From: Escherichia coli
Lineage (GTDB): Bacteria; Pseudomonadota; Gammaproteobacteria; Enterobacterales; Enterobacteriaceae
DNA: 64,000 nt
Direction: 5' to 3' (one strand)
Assembly: GCF_044324785.1 (NCBI RefSeq)
Contig: NZ_CP172127.1
Shown here: positions 37 to 12,897 of the stretch, one piece after another
How the letters are laid out: the number at the start of each line of letters is the position of its first letter
Numbering within the stretch: the first letter of the stretch is position 1
Notes under the pieces: generated by a model
What the model saw: only the letters and a program-made list of their open reading frames with translations
Database searches by the model: none
Told to the model about the DNA's origin: nothing
Position numbers and translations under genes: made by a program

Positions 37-1395
37 ATGACTCAACGACGTGATTTACAAGCACTGATCGATGCTGCTCCGGTCGGCAAGATGCAGTGGC
101 GCGTTATCATCTGCTGTTTTCTGGTGGTAATGCTCGATGGTTTTGACACCGCGGCTATCGGCTTTATCGCCCCTGATATTCGCACTCACTGGCAACTCAC
201 CGCAGGCGATCTCGCCCCGCTTTTTGGCGCGGGTCTGCTGGGGTTAACCGCAGGCGCACTGCTTTGTGGTCCGTTGTCCGATCGCTTTGGCCGCAAACGT
301 GTGATTGAGCTGTGCGTCTTTTTGTTTGGCGCGTTAAGCCTCGCCTCGGCTTTCTCACCGGATCTGCAAACGCTGGTATTCCTGCGTTTCCTCACCGGCC
401 TTGGGCTGGGTGGCGCGATGCCAAACACAATTACCATGACCTCGGAATATCTGCCTGCCCGCCGCCGCGGCGCGCTGGTGACGCTGATGTTTTGCGGCTT
501 TACCCTGGGTTCGGCGTTTGGCGGGATTGTCAGCGCGCAGCTGGTGCCGGTGATTGGCTGGCACGGGATCCTGGTGTTGGGTGGCGTATTACCGCTGATG
601 CTGTTTGTTGCACTGCTGGTGGTTCTGCCGGAATCGCCACGCTGGCAGGTGCGCCGCCAGCTACCCCAGGCGGTGATTGCGAAAACCGTCAGCGCCATCA
701 CCCGCGAGCGTTATGTCGATACCCACTTTTATCTCATTGAATCAGCCTCCGTTACAAAAGGCAGCATTCGTCAACTGTTTATGGGGCGTCAGTTACCCAT
801 CACGTTGATGCTGTGGGTGGTGTTCTTTATGAGCTTGCTGATTATTTACCTGCTCTCAAGCTGGATGCCAACGCTGCTCAACCATCGCGGCATCGACCTG
901 CAACATGCCTCCTGGGTTACCGCCGCGTTCCAGATTGGCGGTACGTTGGGCGCGCTGGCGCTGGGCGTGCTGATGGATAAGTTCAATCCTTTCCGCGTAC
1001 TGGCGCTGAGCTATGCCATAGGCGCTGTATGCATCGTGATGATTGGCTTAAGCCAGGACGGATTATGGCTAATGGCGCTGGCGATTTTCGGCACCGGCAT
1101 TGGCATCAGCGGATCGCAGGTGGGGCTGAATGCGCTGACCGCAACACTTTATCCAACACAAAGTCGCGCCACGGGCGTGAGCTGGTCAAACGCCGTGGGC
1201 CGCTGCGGCGCGATTGTTGGCTCGCTGTCTGGCGGCGTGATGATGGCGATGAATTTCTCTTTCGACACCCTGTTTTTCATTATCGCTGTGCCCGCGGCGA
1301 TCAGTGCGGTGATGTTAACCCTGCTGATCACCGTGGTTCGCCAGTCGACCTCTGTCCCTGACTCACTGCCTCACGCAGGTGTTGTGAACGAATAA
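37..1395 (+). CDS. mhbT: MFS transporter, aromatic-acid uptake (3-hydroxybenzoate/gentisate transporter, MhbT-like)
   Basis: 452-aa ORF with MFS signature loop (LSDRFGRKR) and multiple hydrophobic spans; first gene of a T-D-H-I-M ordered gentisate cluster; ATG at 37. Confidence 0.75.
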
Positions 1396-1406
1396 GGAGC
1401 ATCCCA

Positions 1407-2435
1407 ATGACTGATAACAATCAAAATAGCCGCGAGCAATTTTATCAGCATATTTCCGGGCAAAACCTGACCCCGCTGTGGGAGTCACTGCACCATCTGG
1501 TGCCAAAAACGCCCAACGCTAACTGTGCGCCAGCGTACTGGAATTATCAGGAGATCCGCCCGCTGCTGCTGGAGAGCGGCAGCCTGATTGGCGCGAAAGA
1601 AGCCGTGCGCCGCGTGCTGGTGCTGGAAAACCCGGCGCTGCGCGGGCAGTCTTCCATCACCGCGACTTTATATGCCGGTTTGCAACTGATCATGCCGGGC
1701 GAAGTGGCACCGAGTCATCGCCATAACCAGTCGGCGCTGCGTTTTATTGTTGAAGGTAAAGGGGCATTCACCGCCGTTGATGGCGAACGCACGCCAATGA
1801 ATGAGGGCGATTTTATCCTGACCCCGCAGTGGCGCTGGCACGATCACGGTAACCCTGGCGACGAACCGGTTATCTGGCTCGATGGGCTGGATCTGCCATT
1901 AGTGAACACTCTGGGCTGCGGTTTTGCCGAAGATTACCCGGAGGAGCAACAACCAGTAACGCGTAAAGAGGGCGATTACCTGCCGCGTTACGCTGCCAAT
2001 ATGTTGCCGCTGTGCCATCAGACCGGGAACTCCTCGCCCATCTTTAACTACCGTTATGACCGTAGCCGCGAAGTGCTACACGATTTAACCCGCCTGGGCG
2101 ATGCCGATGAGTGGGATGGCTACAAAATGCGCTACGTCAACCCGGTCACCGGTGGCTATCCGATGCCGTCGATGGGCGCTTTCCTGCAACTGCTGCCGAA
2201 AGGGTTTGCCTCACGCGTGGCGCGTACCACTGACAGCACCATCTACCATGTGGTGGAAGGTAGCGGGCAGGTCACTATCGGCAATGAAACCTTCAGCTTT
2301 AGTGCAAAAGATATCTTCGTGGTGCCGACCTGGCACGGCGTGTCGTTCCAGACCACGCAAGATACCGTTTTATTTAGTTTTTCGGACAGACCGGTACAAG
2401 AAGCCCTGGGGCTGTTCCGCGAAGCGCGTTATTAA
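1407..2435 (+). CDS. mhbD: gentisate 1,2-dioxygenase (bicupin)
   Basis: 342-aa ORF, cupin His motifs (HRH, WRWHDH), AAGGAG SD 9 nt upstream of ATG; position in cluster. Confidence 0.8.
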
Positions 2436-2450
2436 TTTGGGAGAGAGAAA

Positions 2451-3152
2451 ATGACTCAATACGTATTCGAACCACAAGCGCCCGTTACCGTACCGGTTGT
2501 TGGCAGTGATGAACAATTCCCCGTACGCCGCGTTTACTGCGTCGGACGTAACTATGCCGCCCACGCCCGCGAAATGGGCTTTGATCCGGATCGTGAACCG
2601 CCATTCTTCTTCTGCAAACCGGCGGATGCCGTTGTTCCGGTTGCCGCTGGCGAAACGCTGGCGCTGCCGTATCCGGCGCAGACCGATAACTACCATTATG
2701 AAATTGAACTGGTGGTGGCGATTGGTAAAAAAGGCAGTGATATCCCGCTGGAAAACGCCCATGAATATGTCTGGGGTTATGCCACGGGTCTTGATATGAC
2801 TCGCCGTGACCGTCAAATGGAAATGCGCCAGATGGGCCGCCCGTGGGAAATCGGCAAAGCGTTCGATCTCTCGGCCCCCATCGCGCCGCTGCACAAAGCC
2901 AGCGAAACTGGCGGTATTGATAACGCACCTATCTGGTTACAGGTTAACGGCGAAGATCATCAGCGCAGCGATATTCGTCATCTCATCTGGTCAGTGAATG
3001 AAACCATCAGCTACCTGTCAGGCTTCTTTGAGCTGCAACCGGGCGATCTAATCTTTACCGGTACGCCGGAAGGGGTTGGCCCAGTAGTCAAAGGTGATGT
3101 GATCACGGGCAACGTCGAGGGCTTAACGCCTATCGCGGTGAAGATTGTCTGA
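2451..3152 (+). CDS. mhbH: fumarylpyruvate hydrolase (FAH family)
   Basis: 233-aa ORF typical of fumarylacetoacetate-hydrolase family; follows dioxygenase. Confidence 0.75.
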
Positions 3153-3156
3153 GGTG

Positions 3157-3804
3157 ATGATGAAGCTGTACAGTTTTTTTAATAGTTCAGCGTCTTACCG
3201 GGTGCGCATTGCGCTGGCGCTGAAGGGTATCGATTACCAGACCGAAGGGGTGAATATCCGCATTGGTCAGCAAAACGAACTGGCCTACCGGCGGATGAAT
3301 CCGGTCGGGCTGGTGCCGACGCTGCTGACCGACGAGGGCGAATCACTCGGACAATCGCTGGCGATTATTGACTGGCTGGAGAGTCACTACCCGCAAGTTC
3401 CGCTGATGCCGCAGGAAGAACCGGCCCGCAACAAGGTGCTGGAAATTGTCTATGCCATCGCCTGCGATATTCATCCATTGAATAACCTACGCGTGCTGCG
3501 CTACCTGACCGAAGAGCTGAACGTCAGTGAAGAAGATAAAAAACGCTGGTATGCGCACTGGATCCAGCAAGGGTTAAGCGCGGTGGAACAGCTACTGCGC
3601 CAGAGCCAGTCGGGGCAATTTTGTGTGGGCGAGACGCCGACGCTGGCAGATTGCTGCCTTGTTCCACAGTGGGCGAACGCGCTACGTATGAACTGCGATC
3701 TGAGCGGGTATCCGCGCTGCAAAGCGGTGTACGACGCCTGCACGCAGCTGCCAGCGTTCATTGCCGCAGCGCCAGAAAATCAACAAGATAAAATTTCAGC
3801 CTGA
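3157..3804 (+). CDS. mhbI: maleylpyruvate isomerase (glutathione S-transferase zeta class)
   Basis: GST-fold ORF; ORF-track start at 3145 is TTG, first ATG at 3157 preceded by GAGGTG; overlaps upstream stop. Confidence 0.7.
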   Translation: MMKLYSFFNSSASYRVRIALALKGIDYQTEGVNIRIGQQNELAYRRMNPVGLVPTLLTDEGESLGQSLAIIDWLESHYPQVPLMPQEEPARNKVLEIVYAIACDIHPLNNLRVLRYLTEELNVSEEDKKRWYAHWIQQGLSAVEQLLRQSQSGQFCVGETPTLADCCLVPQWANALRMNCDLSGYPRCKAVYDACTQLPAFIAAAPENQQDKISA

Positions 3805-3818
3805 CCAGGAGAACCATA

Positions 3819-5012
3819 ATGACTAAAGTGACACGCGCAGTAATTGTGGGAGGCGGGATCGGCGGTGCGGCAACTGCGTTGTCACTGGCCCGCCAGGGGA
3901 TCAAAGTGGTGCTGCTGGAAAAGGCGCATGAGATCGGTGAGATTGGCGCAGGTATCCAGTTGGGGCCAAATGCGTTTTCGGCGTTGGATAGCCTCGGCGT
4001 CGGCGAAATCGCCCGCCAGCGCGCGGTATTCACCGATCACATCACCATGATGGATGCGGTAAACGCCGAAGAAGTGGTGCGCATTGAAACCGGTCAGGCC
4101 TTTCGCGATCATTTCGGCGGCCCTTACGCGGTGATCCACCGGGTTGATATTCACGCCTCGGTGTGGGAAGCGGTACTGACGCATCCGGACGTGGAATATC
4201 ACACCTCCACCAACGTCGTGGATATTCGCGAGACAGAAGACGATGTCACCGTTTTCGACGATCGCGGCAATAGTTGGATCGGCGATATTCTGATTGGCTG
4301 TGACGGCGTGAAGTCAGTGGTGCGCCAGAGCTTATTGGGCGATGCGCCGCGTGTCACCGGGCATGTGGTCTACCGTGCGGTTATCGATTGTGCCGATATG
4401 CCGGAAGATTTGCGCATTAACGCACCAGTACTGTGGGCGGGGCCGTGCTGTCACTTGGTGCATTACCCTTTACGCGGCGGCAAGCAGTATAACCTGGTGG
4501 TGACATTCCACAGCCGCCAGCAGGAAGAGTGGGGCGTGAAGGATGGCAGTAAAGAGGAAGTGCTCTCTTACTTTGAAGGGATTCACCCCCGTCCGCGCCA
4601 GATGCTGGATAAACCGACCTCCTGGCGACGCTGGTCAACCGCCGACCGTGAACCGGTAGCGAAGTGGGGAACGAAGCGCATTACGCTGGTGGGCGATGCG
4701 GCCCATCCGGTGGCGCAGTATATGGCGCAGGGTGCCTGTATGGCGCTGGAAGACGCGGTAACACTGGGTAAGGCGCTGGCGCAGTGTGAGGGTGATGCGG
4801 CACAAGCCTTTGCGCTGTATGAGTCGGTACGTATTCCGCGCACCGCGCGCATCGTCTGGTCGACCCGTGAAATGGGGCGGGTTTATCATGCCGCAGGAGT
4901 AGAGCGCCAGGTACGTAACCTGTTGTGGAAAGGGAAATCGCAGGCAGAGTTTTACCGCGGCATGGAGTGGCTGTACGGCTGGAAAGAAGATAACTGTTTG
5001 CAACCACGCTGA
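3819..5012 (+). CDS. mhbM: 3-hydroxybenzoate 6-hydroxylase (FAD-dependent monooxygenase, salicylate hydroxylase family)
   Basis: 397-aa ORF with N-terminal FAD fingerprint [11 protein letters not shown] and DAAH motif; last gene of cluster. Confidence 0.75.
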
Positions 5013-5073
5013 GTACTTTAATCCGTTGACCATAGGCGCTAACATAGCGCCTCATTTTTTTGCGGGTGATGAT

Positions 5074-6021
5074 ATGCGTGTGTTACTGGCTCCGATGGAG
5101 GGTGTGCTTGACTCTCTGGTGCGTGAATTGCTGACCGAAGTTAACGACTACGATCTGTGCATCACCGAGTTTGTCCGCGTGGTGGATCAACTGCTGCCGG
5201 TAAAAGTCTTTCATCGCATTTGCCCTGAGCTACAAAACGCCAGCCGGACACCATCCGGTACGCTGGTGCGCGTGCAGTTGTTAGGTCAGTTCCCACAATG
5301 GCTGGCAGAGAATGCCGCCCGTGCGGTCGAGTTAGGTTCCTGGGGCGTGGATCTCAATTGCGGCTGCCCGTCGAAAACGGTTAACGGTAGCGGCGGTGGG
5401 GCGACGTTACTCAAAGATCCTGAACTCATCTATCAGGGTGCAAAAGCGATGCGCGAAGCTGTACCGGCGCATTTGCCCGTAAGCGTAAAAGTGCGTCTGG
5501 GCTGGGACAGCGGTGAGAAGAAATTTGAAATCGCCGATGCGGTGCAACAGGCTGGCGCTACGGAGCTGGTGGTGCATGGGCGGACAAAAGAGCAGGGTTA
5601 CCGCGCGGAGCATATTGACTGGCAGGCGATTGGCGAGATTCGCCAGCGGCTGAATATTCCGGTGATTGCCAACGGTGAAATCTGGGACTGGCAGAGTGCG
5701 CAACAATGCATGGCGATCAGCGGCTGTGACGCAGTGATGATTGGTCGCGGGGCGCTCAATATTCCCAACCTGAGCCGGGTGGTAAAATATAACGAACCGC
5801 GAATGCCGTGGCCGGAGGTGGTTGCTTTGCTGCAAAAATATACCCGTCTGGAAAAGCAGGGCGATACCGGGTTATATCACGTTGCGCGGATTAAACAGTG
5901 GTTGAGTTATTTGCGTAAAGAATACGATGAAGCAACGGAATTATTTCAGCATGTTCGGGTGTTGAATAATTCCCCTGATATTGCAAGGGCTATTCAGGCA
6001 ATTGATATCGAGAAACTCTAA
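5074..6021 (+). CDS. dusC: tRNA-dihydrouridine(16) synthase DusC
   Basis: 315 aa from internal ATG ([13 protein letters not shown]...) matches K-12 DusC N-terminus; ORF track extends 16 codons upstream. Confidence 0.9.
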
Positions 6022-6252
6022 AAAACCATAGTGATGTTTTTTGACAATGTGTTAGCTCTTTATCAATAGGCCGCACGGTTGTTTGGTGGCGTCAAAATCG
6101 CCGAGGCGTTCCCTGAAGGCCGGGGCAGCCCACATGGATGTGGGCTGAGGGCGCGTTTTACAGGGATAATGAGATGGACGCTCCAGATTTTACGGTATCA
6201 AAGTACCAGACTGGATCGTTGCAATACGTCCTGAAAAATTAGGAGCGTCCAC

Positions 6253-7278
6253 ATGAAAGTATCAACTCTTGGTATCGACCTGGCAAAGAACGTTTTTCAG
6301 CTTCATGGTGTCGATCATGAAGGCCATACTATTTTGCGTAAAAAACTCACCCGGGCTAAGTTTGTTCAGTTTGTGATTCAACTGGAACCTTGTCTGATTG
6401 GCATGGAAGCCTGCTCATCCAGTCATTATTTTGCGCGATTATTCACCCGCTATGGTCATGAGGTAAAACTCATACCTCCGCAGTATGTGAAGCCTTATGT
6501 GAAAACGAACAAGACGGATGCAGCAGATGCTGAAGCAATCTGCGAAGCGGTAACCCGTCCGAATATGCGTTTTGTTCAGATAAAAACCGAAGAGCAGCAG
6601 GCCGTTTTAGCGTTACACACTGAACGGGGAATACTTATCCGTGAGCGGATTGCCTGTGCCAATAGTTTAAGAGCCACACTTGCTGAGTTTGGTATTACGA
6701 TTGCGGCCGGACAAAGCCATTTAACCCGTGAGCTGCCAGCCATTCTGGAGGATGGCGAAAATGGTTTATCTCCCTTTGTCAGAACCAGCATCTACAGACA
6801 GTCTAAACATATCCGGGAACTTGAAGAACAAGTTAAACAGGTAGAAGAAGCTCTGGCCTCCTGGTATAGAACGCAGGAAGCCTGCCAGAGAATGGCCAAA
6901 ATCCCGGGGGTTGGCATGCTAACGGCCACTTATGTGGTAGCAGCAGTGGGTAATGCCCGACAATTCAGTACCGCAAAGCAGTTCGCTTCATGGCTGGGGC
7001 TGACACCAAAGGAACATTCCAGCGGCGGGAAACAGCAACTGGGAGGGATCAGCAAACGTGGAGATGGATATTTCCGATACCTGCTGGTTCACGGCGCACG
7101 CGCACTTACCGCCTGGGTCAACCGAAACGGCGCGGTTGAGGAGAATTCCTGGCTTCAGGGACTCCTTGAGCGGAAGCACTACAATGTAGCTGTTGTCGCC
7201 ATGGCGGCAAAAACAGCGAGGATCATGTGGTCAATGTTGTCACACAATACTGAATATCAACCTCGGCAGCTCGCCTGA
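6253..7278 (+). CDS. IS110-family DEDD transposase/recombinase
   Basis: 341-aa ORF, N-terminal LGIDLAK RuvC-like motif, strong similarity in pattern to IS4321/IS5075-type transposases. Confidence 0.9.
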   Translation: MKVSTLGIDLAKNVFQLHGVDHEGHTILRKKLTRAKFVQFVIQLEPCLIGMEACSSSHYFARLFTRYGHEVKLIPPQYVKPYVKTNKTDAADAEAICEAVTRPNMRFVQIKTEEQQAVLALHTERGILIRERIACANSLRATLAEFGITIAAGQSHLTRELPAILEDGENGLSPFVRTSIYRQSKHIRELEEQVKQVEEALASWYRTQEACQRMAKIPGVGMLTATYVVAAVGNARQFSTAKQFASWLGLTPKEHSSGGKQQLGGISKRGDGYFRYLLVHGARALTAWVNRNGAVEENSWLQGLLERKHYNVAVVAMAAKTARIMWSMLSHNTEYQPRQLA

Positions 7279-7538
7279 CACAAGGTCAGTCAATCTGACG
7301 AGGTGCTGAAAAAAAGTTAACGTCCTGGTAGGTGCAGGTGACTTCAGAAGATGGCAAAACAGGTAAGACCGCAGGCAGGATACACCGAGAGGTAACAAGG
7401 GCAAGTTAGCCCGTAGAGGATGATTGGTACCTGCCTGGCGGATTTCATCATGGTTCGGGATAAAAATCCCATCAGAAACCGGATATATGGCTGCACCTAC
7501 CCGTTTTATTACATAACTGAAGAAAGCATTGCATTCCG
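7279..7538 (+). ncRNA. candidate IS-encoded structured ncRNA (bridge/seek-RNA-like) in 3' non-coding end of the IS
   Basis: 260-nt non-coding stretch between transposase stop and right IR containing 11-bp long-range inverted repeat GGTAGGTGCAG (7327-7337) / CTGCACCTACC (7491-7501). Confidence 0.3.
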
Positions 7539-7779
7539 GGAGCGTCCATATATGTTACCTCGCGCCCGACCCGGTAGCCGTAAGGGATAAGCCGAGGGCA
7601 CCGCGCAGCGGCGATTTTGTTCGCCAGAGCCCGGGGGTGCAGGGGGCGGCGGCGATTGGCCGCCCCCTGCGCGCTCCTTGCGCCAGTGATTATATGAAGC
7701 AATGCACATGACAGGAGCGCAACAGGATGAGAGACTGAAATATTCTCGTTATTTTCGGATCTGATGACATTAATTAATT

Positions 7780-7863
7780 TTAAAATATCATCTTAAATAC
7801 GCCAGTCACCACCAGTAGCCCAATCAGGAAAATAATCAATACAGCCCAGAGTATAATTTTCAT
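7780..7863 (-). CDS. yohP: small membrane protein YohP (27 aa)
   Basis: Manual translation of minus strand gives MKIILWAVLIIFLIGLLVVTGVFKMIF; below ORF-track length cut-off. Confidence 0.85.
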   Translation of the reverse strand: MKIILWAVLIIFLIGLLVVTGVFKMIF

Positions 7864-8086
7864 TGGCGTTCCTTTATTTGTGAGTGCTGAATAAGTATAG
7901 GAAAAAACGAAGTCCTTTGCCGTTATCCATAAACGATTAAGATAAATCGGAAGATATCATTCACTTAGTGTATATTTTTCTGGATATGTCATATTATTGC
8001 CACTGATGTTTTGCCACGCGAAACTAAAAAATATATCGCAACACACGGTAATCTCCGCGCACCTTTTCTTACCTGATTATTCCCCC

Positions 8087-9523
8087 ATGAATCGTGATTC
8101 CTTTTATCCCGCCATCGCCTGTTTTCCGCTGTTACTGATGCTGGCCGGGTGTGCGCCTATGCATGAAACCCGCCAGGCGTTAAGCCAGCAAACGCCTGCT
8201 GCACAAGTTGACACCGCATTACCCACGGCGCTGAAAAATGGTTGGCCAGACAGCCAATGGTGGCTGGAGTATCACGATAATCAGCTCACTTCCTTAATTA
8301 ACAATGCACTACAGAACGCACCGGATATGCAGGTGGCTGAACAGCGCATTCAGCTAGCTGAAGCCCAGGCGAAGGCAGTTGCTACTCAGGATGGTCCGCA
8401 GATCGACTTTTCTGCGGATATGGAGCGGCAAAAAATGTCGGCAGAAGGGTTAATGGGGCCGTTTGCTCTGAACGATCCTGCCGCAGGTACGACCGGTCCG
8501 TGGTACACCAACGGTACTTTTGGCTTAACGGCGGGCTGGCATCTCGATATCTGGGGAAAGAATCGGGCGGAGGTAACTGCTCGCCTGGGTACGGTTAAAG
8601 CACGAGCGGCGGAACGCGAGCAAACCCGCCAATTGCTGGCTGGCAGCGTAGCCCGCCTGTACTGGGAGTGGCAAACCCAGGCGGCGTTAAACACTGTCTT
8701 ACAGCAAATCGAAAAAGAGCAGAACACCATTATCGCCACCGATCGCCAGCTATATCAGAACGGGATTACTTCTTCAGTTGAAGGTGTGGAAACCGATATT
8801 AATGCCAGCAAAACCCGGCAGCAGCTCAACGATGTCGCGGGGAAAATGAAAATTATTGAGGCACGGTTAAGCGCACTTACAAATCACCAGACAAAGTCAC
8901 TGAAGCTTAAACCGGTCGCGTTGCCGAAAGTGGCAAGCCAGCTTCCTGATGAACTGGGGTACTCCTTACTGGCGCGGCGGGCAGATTTGCAGGCGGCGCA
9001 CTGGTACGTTGAGTCATCGTTAAGCACCATTGATGCGGCAAAAGCGGCATTTTATCCTGACATCAACCTGATGGCCTTCCTGCAACAGGATGCGTTGCAC
9101 TTAAGCGATCTGTTCCGTCATTCCGCGCAGCAAATGGGCGTTACGGCAGGCCTGACGCTACCCATTTTCGATAGTGGTCGTCTTAACGCCAATCTCGATA
9201 TCGCAAAAGCCGAAAGCAACTTGTCTATCGCCAGCTACAACAAAGCGGTGGTTGAAGCGGTGAATGACGTGGCGCGGGCAGCCAGTCAGGTTCAGACACT
9301 GGCGGAGAAAAACCAGCATCAGGCGCAAATTGAGCGCGATGCCTTGCGTGTAGTTGGTCTTGCGCAGGCGCGCTTTAACGCGGGCATCATTGCCGGTTCC
9401 CGCGTCAGCGAAGCCAGAATCCCGGCGCTTCGCGAGCGGGCCAATGGCCTGTTATTGCAAGGGCAGTGGCTGGATGCCTCCATTCAACTCACTGGTGCGT
9501 TGGGCGGGGGTTACAAACGCTGA
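8087..9523 (+). CDS. mdtQ: outer-membrane efflux channel (TolC/OprM family) MdtQ, intact
   Basis: 478 aa from ATG at 8087 (MNRDSFYPAIACFPLLLMLAGC lipobox); uninterrupted reading frame. Confidence 0.85.
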   Translation: MNRDSFYPAIACFPLLLMLAGCAPMHETRQALSQQTPAAQVDTALPTALKNGWPDSQWWLEYHDNQLTSLINNALQNAPDMQVAEQRIQLAEAQAKAVATQDGPQIDFSADMERQKMSAEGLMGPFALNDPAAGTTGPWYTNGTFGLTAGWHLDIWGKNRAEVTARLGTVKARAAEREQTRQLLAGSVARLYWEWQTQAALNTVLQQIEKEQNTIIATDRQLYQNGITSSVEGVETDINASKTRQQLNDVAGKMKIIEARLSALTNHQTKSLKLKPVALPKVASQLPDELGYSLLARRADLQAAHWYVESSLSTIDAAKAAFYPDINLMAFLQQDALHLSDLFRHSAQQMGVTAGLTLPIFDSGRLNANLDIAKAESNLSIASYNKAVVEAVNDVARAASQVQTLAEKNQHQAQIERDALRVVGLAQARFNAGIIAGSRVSEARIPALRERANGLLLQGQWLDASIQLTGALGGGYKR

Positions 9524-9575
9524 TGATATGCGCCTTCTATACTTAACGTTTATTCAGCGTTAAGTGGAGAACTCG

Positions 9576-10337
9576 ATGGCACAGGTTGCGATTATTACCG
9601 CCTCCGATTCGGGGATCGGCAAAGAGTGCGCGTTATTACTGGCGCAGCAGGGGTTTGATATTGGTATTACCTGGCACTCAGATGAAGAAGGGGCAAAAGA
9701 TACCGCGCGTGAGGTAGTTAGCCACGGCGTACGTGCGGAGATCGTGCAACTGGATCTCGGCAATCTACCAGAAGGTGCGCAGGCGCTGGAGAAACTGATT
9801 CAACGGCTGGGGCGTATTGATGTGCTGGTGAATAATGCGGGTGCAATGACCAAAGCGCCGTTTCTTGATATGGCTTTTGATGAGTGGCGCAAGATTTTTA
9901 CCGTTGATGTCGACGGTGCATTCTTATGCTCGCAAATTGCGGCCCGCCAGATGGTGAAACAAGGGCAGGGCGGTCGCATCATCAACATTACGTCGGTACA
10001 TGAACATACGCCGCTGCCGGATGCCAGCGCCTACACAGCCGCTAAACATGCGCTCGGCGGGTTAACCAAAGCGATGGCGCTGGAGCTGGTCAGGCATAAG
10101 ATTTTGGTGAATGCGGTTGCACCTGGGGCGATCGCCACGCCAATGAACGGCATGGATGATGGCGACGTGAAGCCCGGCGCGGAGCCTTCGATTCCTCTGA
10201 GGCGTTTTGGCGCAACGCATGAGATTGCCAGCCTGGTAGCGTGGCTGTGCTCAGAGGGCGCAAATTACACCACCGGGCAGTCGTTGATAGTGGATGGCGG
10301 CTTTATGTTGGCGAATCCGCAGTTCAACCCAGAATAG
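9576..10337 (+). CDS. yohF: short-chain dehydrogenase/reductase YohF
   Basis: 253 aa from first ATG (MAQVAIITASDSGIGK Rossmann motif); ORF-track start is GTG 12 nt upstream. Confidence 0.85.
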   Translation: MAQVAIITASDSGIGKECALLLAQQGFDIGITWHSDEEGAKDTAREVVSHGVRAEIVQLDLGNLPEGAQALEKLIQRLGRIDVLVNNAGAMTKAPFLDMAFDEWRKIFTVDVDGAFLCSQIAARQMVKQGQGGRIINITSVHEHTPLPDASAYTAAKHALGGLTKAMALELVRHKILVNAVAPGAIATPMNGMDDGDVKPGAEPSIPLRRFGATHEIASLVAWLCSEGANYTTGQSLIVDGGFMLANPQFNPE

Positions 10338-10367
10338 CGCAGTGAGGTGCGTGGTTATTTCAATGGG

Positions 10368-10448
10368 TTAGGCCAGATAAGACACGCCAGCGTCGCATCA
10401 GGCATGGAACACTCGGTGCCGGATGTGGCGTGAATGCTTATCTGTGGC
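10368..10448. repeat. REP/BIME element (two inverted REP units)
   Basis: TTAGGCCAGATAAGACACGCCAGCGTCGCATCAGGCA is reverse complement of REP consensus; second degenerate REP GCCGGATGTGGCGTGAATGCTTATCTG in opposite orientation; between convergent yohF and yohD. Confidence 0.55.
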
Positions 10449-10455
10449 AACTGCT

Positions 10456-11034
10456 TTACGCTTGATTATCCGGCTTTTTCTTCCCGCGCCGTTTCAGCCA
10501 CCAGCGCACGCCTACCACCAGAACCACGACCAGAATCAACCAGACCCAGTGCTTCAAATGCTGGTCGAGATTGTGCAACCATGGCGCAATCACCTGACCA
10601 CCAGCGTAACCGATAGTGGTAAAAATCAACGCCCAGGCAAATGCGCCGAGGATATTCAGTGGCAGAAAGATTTTCGGCGGCAGCTGGCTGGCACCAATCA
10701 GCGTCGGGCCAATCACCCGAAAGCCATACATAAAACGCGTACCAATGACAAACAGATACGGATGGCGCTGGATAAGTTTCTGCGCCCGCTCAATTTTATC
10801 CTGATGTTTCGAGAAACGGCGTAACAGCTTGCCGCCAAACCGCCGCCCGCACAGATAGAGCACCTGGTCGCCAATCATGCCGCCAAGCGCCACAGAAAGT
10901 ACCACCAGCGGGAACTTTAATAGCCCCTGATGTGCCGCAACGCCTCCCAGCAAAGTCACGGTTTCACCTTCCGCCAGGCTACCGATCACCAGCGCGGCAT
11001 AACCATATTGTGAGATGAGTGTATTGAGATCCAT
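10456..11034 (-). CDS. yohD: DedA-family inner membrane protein YohD
   Basis: 192 aa from internal ATG (MDLNTLISQYGYAALVIGSLAEG). Confidence 0.85.
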   Translation of the reverse strand: MDLNTLISQYGYAALVIGSLAEGETVTLLGGVAAHQGLLKFPLVVLSVALGGMIGDQVLYLCGRRFGGKLLRRFSKHQDKIERAQKLIQRHPYLFVIGTRFMYGFRVIGPTLIGASQLPPKIFLPLNILGAFAWALIFTTIGYAGGQVIAPWLHNLDQHLKHWVWLILVVVLVVGVRWWLKRRGKKKPDNQA

Positions 11035-11203
11035 AGGCCAGTCTGTCTCCCTTTGGTTGCCTGTAAGCATACACCCTGTGAATCATTCACGCTGAAAAAG
11101 GACGTACATCAGACGGTGCAAATTACATGGGCGAACAAAAAATAATCACAAGCTGGCTTATACTTGAACTGTCAGGTTCATGAACTCACAACAAGGGGGC
11201 GGT

Positions 11204-11791
11204 ATGAGCCATGTCTGGGGACTGTTTTCCCATCCCGATCGTGAAATGCAGGTGATTAATCGCGAAAACGAAACGATTTCTCACCATTACACCCACCACG
11301 TTTTGCTGATGGCGGCGATTCCGGTGATTTGCGCCTTCATTGGCACCACACAAATTGGCTGGAATTTTGGCGATGGCACTATCCTGAAGTTATCCTGGTT
11401 TACCGGACTGGCGCTGGCTGTCTTGTTTTATGGCGTTATGCTGGCTGGGGTCGCGGTGATGGGGCGGGTCATCTGGTGGATGGCGCGCAATTATCCGCAA
11501 CGTCCATCACTTGCGCACTGCATGGTCTTCGCGGGCTACGTTGCAACTCCGCTGTTTTTAAGCGGTCTGGTGGCGCTTTATCCGCTGGTCTGGTTGTGTG
11601 CGCTGGTCGGCACGGTGGCGCTGTTTTACACCGGCTACCTGCTTTACCTCGGTATTCCGAGCTTCCTGAATATCAACAAAGAGGAAGGCCTTAGCTTCTC
11701 CAGTTCGACGTTGGCGATAGGCGTGCTGGTGCTGGAAGTGCTGCTCGCCCTTACCGTTATACTATGGGGTTACGGTTATCGTTTGTTCTAG
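11204..11791 (+). CDS. yohC: Yip1-family inner membrane protein YohC
   Basis: 195 aa from ATG at 11204 (MSHVWGLFSHPDREMQ). Confidence 0.85.
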   Translation: MSHVWGLFSHPDREMQVINRENETISHHYTHHVLLMAAIPVICAFIGTTQIGWNFGDGTILKLSWFTGLALAVLFYGVMLAGVAVMGRVIWWMARNYPQRPSLAHCMVFAGYVATPLFLSGLVALYPLVWLCALVGTVALFYTGYLLYLGIPSFLNINKEEGLSFSSSTLAIGVLVLEVLLALTVILWGYGYRLF

Positions 11792-11964
11792 AAAGTTCTT
11801 TTGTGTTGCATTGCTGGCGTAAATGTCAGCAATGCAGCATTTCCTCACGATTCTCCTTTGACGATCGCACTTTTTGCTCGTTATGATGGCGTCGCTAGCC
11901 TCAGTAAATCCTTACTCCGGCGGTGCGCAACCTGTGCGCGTGAACCACTATCTGAATGCTCATC

Positions 11965-12897
11965 ATGCCGAAATTTCGAGTTTCTTTATTTAGCCTGGCC
12001 CTGATGCTGGCTGTGCCTTTTGCACCGCAGGCCGTTGCGAAAACGGCAGCCGCTACCACCGCTTCACAGCCGGAAATTGCCTCCGGTAGCGCGATGATTG
12101 TTGATCTGAATACCAACAAAGTGATCTATTCGAACCACCCGGATCTGGTGCGTCCGATTGCGTCTATCAGCAAATTAATGACCGCGATGGTCGTGCTGGA
12201 TGCGCGACTGCCGCTGGATGAAAAACTAAAAGTGGATATCAGCCAGACGCCGGAGATGAAAGGGGTCTATTCGCGCGTACGACTGAATAGCGAAATCAGC
12301 CGTAAAGATATGCTGTTGCTGGCGCTGATGTCTTCAGAAAACCGCGCGGCGGCAAGCCTTGCGCACCATTATCCCGGTGGTTACAAAGCCTTTATTAAGG
12401 CGATGAATGCGAAAGCGAAATCGCTCGGAATGAACAACACGCGCTTTGTTGAACCGACCGGATTGTCGGTGCATAACGTTTCAACCGCCCGTGACTTAAC
12501 CAAACTGCTCATTGCCAGCAAACAATATCCGTTGATCGGGCAGTTAAGTACTACCCGGGAAGATATGGCAACCTTCTCTAACCCGACGTATACGCTGCCG
12601 TTCCGCAATACTAATCATCTGGTGTATCGCGATAACTGGAATATCCAGCTAACCAAAACCGGCTTTACCAATGCGGCGGGCCATTGTCTGGTGATGCGTA
12701 CGGTTATCAATAATAAACCGGTGGCGCTGGTAGTGATGGATGCGTTTGGCAAATATACCCATTTTGCCGATGCCAGCCGCCTGCGTACCTGGATTGAGAC
12801 CGGTAAAGTGATGCCTGTTCCGGCAGCAGCGTTGAGCTATAAAAAACAAAAAGCCGCCCAGATGGCGGCGGCGGGGCAGACGGCGCAGAACGATTAA
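11965..12897 (+). CDS. pbpG: D-alanyl-D-alanine endopeptidase PBP7
   Basis: 310 aa, signal peptide [25 protein letters not shown], SxxK motif SISKLMT. Confidence 0.9.

Follow-up and report, generated by a model that had tools for sequence, protein, structure and literature searches.

The closest described relative of the gene analysed here is MdtQ, formerly YohG, of Escherichia coli and other Enterobacteriaceae (NF008524; O157:H7 entry Q8X659). The gene lies on the plus strand at positions 8087..9523 of a 64,000-nucleotide stretch of E. coli DNA (assembly GCF_044324785.1, contig NZ_CP172127.1), referred to below as the window, and its product is the same protein as described MdtQ, with nothing substantive differing. 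Very probably the region holds mdtQ, a core gene of E. coli, in its ordinary wild-type form, encoding a lipoprotein of the NodT subfamily of the outer-membrane factor (OMF) family. The gene b2139 of K-12 MG1655 occupies the same locus, but that copy is frameshifted whereas the window copy is without the lesion. The closest named paralogue family is that of MdtP (YjcP), the OMF of the E. coli ytcA-mdtNOP system; both proteins are NodT-type lipoproteins, but mdtP sits inside the ytcA-mdtNOP operon whereas neither an adaptor nor a transporter gene adjoins mdtQ. The best solved relative by both sequence and fold is VceC of Vibrio cholerae (1yc9), the OMF of VceCAB, with about 25% identity. In vceCAB, VceC is encoded with its adaptor and its major facilitator superfamily (MFS) pump, whereas MdtQ is an orphan in this respect. 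TolC of E. coli (1ek9) is approximately 12-13% identical to MdtQ and is stated in the literature to be without lipidation, whereas MdtQ has a lipobox.

The mdtQ frame opens with ATG at 8087 and closes with a TGA ending at 9523, giving 1437 nt, or 478 codons and a stop. Re-translation found it free of internal stops, as the earlier note had described, and alignment with the K-12 gene uncovered no hidden frameshift or premature stop in the window copy. The identification as mdtQ was borne out by the standard synteny of the locus and by the NCBIfam equivalog model NF008524, which, with a cutoff of 650 bits, scored 1025.6 bits and aligned residues 1-478 with model positions 1-478 of 478. The NodT subfamily model TIGR01845 was also exceeded (274.1 bits, cutoff 210.05), and the Pfam domain OEP (PF02321) was found as two tandem stretches (E 1.7e-30). 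The model of the TolC subfamily of type I secretion, TIGR01844, gave only 53.8 bits, far under its cutoff of 225.15. The designation of the product as a channel of the TolC family thus holds in the broad OMF sense but not for the TolC subfamily proper; strictly, these scores place MdtQ in the NodT-type lipoprotein branch of the OMF family, outside the TolC branch. With the MdtP model NF007390 the score was 356 bits, under the cutoff of 597, and by this measure MdtQ is a paralogue of MdtP and not a member of the MdtP family.

The K-12 MG1655 gene b2139 (NC_000913.3) is indeed flagged as a pseudogene, with a length of 1436 nt. Base-by-base alignment showed its lesion to be a deletion of one nucleotide which shortens a run of five A residues to four at codon 50, and the frame ends after 69 residues. 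In the window the intact A5 run is at 8234..8238 on the plus strand, in codons K50-N51, and both the alignment and the k-mer counts below identify the A4 form as the K-12 frameshift. Over the rest of the 1437 nt the two copies differ by 26 substitutions, 25 of them synonymous and a single one non-synonymous (H267N), and the K-12 lesion looks recent in sequence terms because the other differences have this composition.

Two proxies, k-mer matches and the lengths of matches in an evenly spaced sample, gave the estimate of how common the intact gene is, and nonsense mutations would escape this approach. Of 5426 complete E. coli genomes, 5420 had DNA matching annotated mdtQ, with 95-99.4% identity. 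The window 61-mer spanning the A5 site was found exactly in 4587 of these 5426 genomes, and the corresponding K-12 60-mer in 355. The 40 genomes listed among these 355 were all laboratory strains or derivatives, judged by name, and included K-12, C600, J53, DH5alpha, ER and NEB strains, evolved MG1655 lines and similar. Among 60 evenly spaced records, 54 had a full-length match of 1437 nt and four had a match of 1436 nt, namely J53, ST18, EM18-18-42 and DSM 498. In the same sample, strain PSS-10 had a match of 1438 nt (NZ_AP027685.1, 1636340-1637777), a net gain of one nucleotide which is probably an independent frameshift, and in STEC379 only 40% of the gene, from its 3′ end, remained and was annotated as 'TolC family protein' (NZ_CP091024.1, 1754845-1755417). 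Because both the k-mer counts and the 60-record sample favour the intact copy, the sequence comparison indicates that intact mdtQ is the species norm and the K-12 lesion a lineage-specific exception. The contrast drawn by the earlier note between this strain and K-12 therefore survives as far as the broken K-12 copy is concerned, but an intact copy is not special to the strain. Both the intact gene and its contrast with K-12 are already known and published; a 2025 review describes mdtQ as conserved in the core genome despite the pseudogene label (PMC11762307). Under the name MdtQ, 957 public contigs likewise carry the exact protein of the window, and the nearest allele in a complete genome has 99.4% DNA identity with two residue differences (S271A, V402I).

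In Salmonella and Citrobacter, orthologues of 478-479 amino acids are widespread, with 80-82% identity; the E. albertii copy is 94% identical. A library clustered at 50% identity yielded one full-length representative above 42%, at 60%, and all others were at 42% or below. MdtQ thus forms a narrow, mainly enterobacterial clade inside a very large family, because just this one full-length representative exceeds 42% identity. The ratio of non-synonymous to synonymous substitution rates (dN/dS) was 0.068 relative to the orthologue in Salmonella (dS approximately 1.85; the proteins align ungapped with 81% amino-acid identity) and 0.012 relative to K-12 mdtQ with its frame restored. Because both values are low, mdtQ is by its pattern of substitution a real, maintained and conserved gene and no chance open reading frame.

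The lipoprotein signal peptide of which the earlier note spoke was recognised in the first 22 codons, at 8087..8152 on the plus strand. The N-terminus is MNRDSFYPAIACFPLLLMLAGC followed by AP; it reads LLMLAGC and ends in the lipobox L-A-G-C. The codon for Cys22 is at 8150-8152, and this cysteine is at least 90% conserved in the alignment of 115 homologues. A lipobox-like motif was seen in 113 of 130 homologue representatives and is kept as LAGC in the Salmonella orthologue and as LSAC in the 60%-identical homologue. The residue at +2 after Cys22 is Ala and not Asp. Under the Lol sorting rule a residue other than Asp at +2 directs a lipoprotein to the outer membrane, and the Ala of MdtQ hence predicts outer-membrane targeting.

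The AlphaFold2 model of MdtQ, built from the 115-sequence alignment, had a mean predicted local distance difference test score (pLDDT) of 89.3 and a predicted TM-score (pTM) of 0.84. It contains four beta-strands (residues 105-116, 139-153, 325-336 and 348-357) and four very long helices (158-224, 230-265, 365-431 and 437-471) in a duplicated strand-strand-helix-helix pattern. On the plus strand the first pair of predicted beta-barrel strands is encoded at 8399..8545 and the second pair at 9059..9157, as judged from AlphaFold2 and Foldseek. When the model was searched against the PDB with Foldseek the top match was VceC (1yc9; E 4e-26, target TM-score 0.89, 25% identity), and below it came CusC, CmeC, OprM, OprJ, SilC, OprN and MtrE and then TolC near E 1e-15, all nine with a Foldseek probability of 1.00. 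A sequence search also put VceC first, with E 1.5e-39. The predicted MdtQ protomer has the four strands and the long alpha-hairpins that the OMF fold requires.

By analogy with these relatives, MdtQ probably serves some inner-membrane pump as a trimeric exit duct. The precursor would be exported and lipid-modified at Cys22, and the lipidated protein, with Ala at +2, would be sorted to the outer membrane. There, three protomers, each contributing four beta-strands and its long alpha-hairpins, would assemble a 12-stranded pore continued by a periplasmic alpha-helical tunnel. The tip of the tunnel would dock on the hairpins of a periplasmic adaptor, allowing the inner-membrane pump to expel its substrates across the outer membrane. 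This scheme follows established knowledge of the OMF family, and for MdtQ itself we infer the expression, the trimer assembly, the partner pump and the substrates. From the integrity of the reading frame, the purifying selection and the predicted fold we also infer that MdtQ would be functional in this strain.

Several observations weigh against a working MdtQ. No Shine-Dalgarno sequence is recognisable before the mdtQ ATG in E. coli (ttattcccccATG; 8060-8089), and none is seen before the start in Salmonella either (aacacctccATG; Salmonella locus L003, 5960-6003). Translation initiation is suggested to be weak or unusual, because the start codon is conserved without a Shine-Dalgarno-like sequence. 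The promoter region of mdtQ is presumed to be the divergent intergenic region between yohP and mdtQ at 7864..8086, but the promoter scan gave no site there, and the sites found over 7500-9700 were no more numerous than in shuffled sequences. The review cited above (PMC11762307) states that the mdtQ promoter is without experimental confirmation and describes the function of the gene as not elucidated. Independent losses have moreover occurred in K-12, in some isolates of S. Typhi and Paratyphi A, where mdtQ is reported as truncated (PMC9241588), and in occasional other E. coli; such truncations imply that the gene is dispensable in some niches.

All these points would be accommodated if mdtQ were intact but cryptic, being little expressed or poorly translated most of the time and making no practical difference from K-12. 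We consider this unlikely, although of the alternatives it is the one to be taken most seriously. The repeated loss is as expected for a dispensable gene, but strong long-term purifying selection at the divergence of the Salmonella comparison is unexpected if the gene is never put to use. Likewise, a full-length match is retained in about 90% of the sampled complete genomes, and full-length orthologues have been kept in both Salmonella and Citrobacter.

Reported mutant phenotypes have a bearing on the same question. In the part of the review PMC11762307 that cites its ref. 48, E. coli mdtQ null mutants are described as susceptible to puromycin, to acriflavine and to tetraphenylarsonium, and a mdtQ/yohG mutant of the Keio collection is reported to have a ciprofloxacin persistence phenotype (PMC13131330). 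If the mutants were made in K-12, a susceptibility phenotype sits oddly beside the pseudogene state and adds to the points against the preferred reading of mdtQ as an ordinary functional allele. Because the K-12 gene is frameshifted, polar effects on yohF or yohP, or an activity of the 69-residue lipopeptide remnant, would need to be excluded.

A further point against the reading of MdtQ as an exit duct is that no adaptor (MFP) or transporter genes are found beside mdtQ, its neighbours being yohP, dusC, yohF and yohD (DedA/VTT), and the gene is described as encoded alone (PMC11762307). This orphan arrangement is conserved in Salmonella. TolC likewise is encoded apart from its pumps, and because of this the missing neighbouring pump genes do not exclude MdtQ from the OMF family. 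The conserved neighbour is yohF, encoding a short-chain dehydrogenase/reductase (SDR) oxidoreductase at 9576..10337 on the plus strand, 52 nt downstream of mdtQ. The mdtQ-yohF pair is found with a gap of approximately 50-65 nt in E. coli (9523-9576), in Salmonella (L003, 7437-7503) and beside the metagenomic 60%-identical homologue (L005, 2031-2080), whose neighbouring YohF fragment has 73% identity. Between mdtQ and yohF no terminator-like site was found in the promoter and terminator scan of 7500-9700, which was uninformative in showing no excess over shuffles. The two genes may be co-transcribed as an operon of an outer-membrane channel and an oxidoreductase.

Potential partner pumps were sought in the genomic context of the six nearest non-orthologous MdtQ homologues, which have 35-42% identity. 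P0141 and P0143 are each part of a complete operon of YtcA, an AaeA-like adaptor, a FUSC-family transporter and the OMF, in P0141 with the layout of mdtNOP. P0139 and P0144 each follow immediately after a FUSC-family transporter, P0145 belongs to an operon of MFS transporter, OMF and EmrA-like adaptor, and P0140, on a short contig, has only a TetR-family gene downstream. A FUSC-family transporter hence adjoins four of the six, two of them in full YtcA-MFP-FUSC-OMF operons of the mdtNOP type, and the MFS-OMF-EmrA-like arrangement accounts for one. A resistance-nodulation-division (RND) pump was found beside none of the six, P0140 being the one on a short contig. In the separate context of P0135, also a short contig, only yohF was present downstream. 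By this analogy the likeliest partners of MdtQ are pumps with AaeA- or EmrA-type adaptors rather than RND pumps, because the nearest homologues sit in operons of the FUSC/AaeA or MFS/EmrA type.

A more specific proposal, which we regard as doubtful, is that MdtQ serves as the outer-membrane duct for those FUSC-type pumps of E. coli which possess an adaptor resembling AaeA but lack a known channel. YdhJK is the second candidate pump for such a pairing. For AaeAB, a 2021 review lists the system as 'AaeAB-?', with the outer-membrane component unnamed (PMC8277102). Activity of AaeAB has been reported in MG1655, where mdtQ is broken, and MdtQ is accordingly not strictly required for AaeAB. The proposal leans indirectly on the contexts above, with FUSC transporters beside four of the six homologues and RND pumps beside none. 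If it were true, a complete tripartite system for the efflux of aromatic acids would operate in wild E. coli, and K-12, in which the pumps were studied, could not assemble it.

An island for the catabolism of 3-hydroxybenzoate and gentisate lies at 37-5012, upstream of and adjoining dusC. Its genes encode the transporter MhbT (mhbT), gentisate 1,2-dioxygenase, a hydrolase of the FAH family, maleylacetoacetate isomerase and 3-hydroxybenzoate 6-monooxygenase. It is present in only 614 of the 5426 complete E. coli genomes, and Salmonella has it in the same position. The island may represent an older layout that has been lost from K-12 and most E. coli, because Salmonella has the same position despite the rarity in E. 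coli. As pointers to the duct proposed above, both this adjoining island and the pairing of mdtQ with yohF may be coincidence.

That the window allele, although open, is defective through a disabling substitution is highly improbable. No evidence supporting such a substitution was found, and the comparisons speak against it. The exact protein is common, as its 957 public contigs testify, and it differs by the single residue H267N from frame-restored K-12 MdtQ and by only the two residues given above from the nearest complete genome. At the invariant or near-invariant family positions, C22, P79, R298, P324, P359, G473 and others, the residues listed are those of the window.

The position of the start codon is the basis of an equally improbable alternative. 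In the list of open reading frames the mdtQ frame opens 30 codons earlier, at TTG 7997, giving 508 amino acids, and the public entries P0123, P0124 and P0128, from the same cluster, are also 508 amino acids long and annotated from the upstream TTG (equivalent to 7997-9523 of the window). A true product of this form would have its signal peptide buried and would be no lipoprotein, but in-frame stops interrupt the extension in Salmonella and also in the homologue of 60% identity, the alignment to the curated MdtQ model begins at the ATG and pairs 1-478 with 1-478, and the lipobox cysteine is conserved over the 115 homologues. The start is placed at 8087 because of the alignment from this ATG and the broken extension in relatives, and the 508-residue entries look like start-site mis-annotations of an extension that is not conserved. 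A minus-strand open reading frame of 117 amino acids at 8386-8739 was rejected as mechanical, the pattern of synonymous change fitting the plus-strand frame.

The gene order of the window is dusC, yohP, mdtQ, yohF, yohD, yohC, pbpG, dld and bglX, and it is the same in K-12 and Salmonella. yohP is at 7780-7863 on the minus strand, next to mdtQ. Over 9972 bp the window aligns collinearly with annotated E. coli, with 98.3% identity, except for an insertion sequence (IS) upstream of yohP. This element belongs to the IS110 family and has 1384 bp (6168-7551) between dusC and yohP, with a transposase open reading frame at 6253-7278 on the plus strand. The transposase has the Pfam domains DEDD_Tnp_IS110 and Transposase_20, and relatives in RefSeq are named 'IS110 family RNA-guided transposase'. 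Its non-coding ends are asymmetric, approximately 85 bp before the open reading frame and 273 bp after it. The empty site in strain WP4-S18-ESBL-07 reads TTTTACAGGGAT and GTTACCTCGCG on the two sides of the insertion point. The element is present in a single copy in the window, and the same layout occurs in 94 of the 5426 complete E. coli genomes. The insertion was considered as an influence on mdtQ and rejected; an effect on the gene or its promoter is unlikely because the insertion lies on the far side of yohP, 535 bp upstream.

A scan of 5000-12000 with Rfam gave no match in or beside mdtQ. Elsewhere in the scanned region the Peptidase-S11 motif (RF03039) was found at 11880-11960 on the plus strand, with 73.1 bits where the gathering score is 34.8, just upstream of pbpG, the gene for D-alanyl-D-alanine endopeptidase. 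A sub-threshold match to naRNA4/CssrE (RF02564; 44 versus 59.5 bits) at 10371-10475 on the minus strand, between yohF and yohD, is probably a repeat of the repetitive extragenic palindromic (REP) type. The window as a whole is unusually far from all complete RefSeq E. coli genomes. Over 24.4 kb (9600-34000) the best match was 98.8% (strain N3) and the next 97.8%, and by these identities the source lineage is thinly represented among complete genomes.

As a discovery the finding is of little weight, the intact allele being the norm and the protein being already in the databases under its right name. Its meaning lies in the choice of strain. K-12 is not representative of E. coli for mdtQ, and efflux studies made in K-12 alone cannot reveal a role of MdtQ. 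A wild strain such as the source strain of the window, or K-12 with its A-run repaired, is the right background for work on MdtQ.

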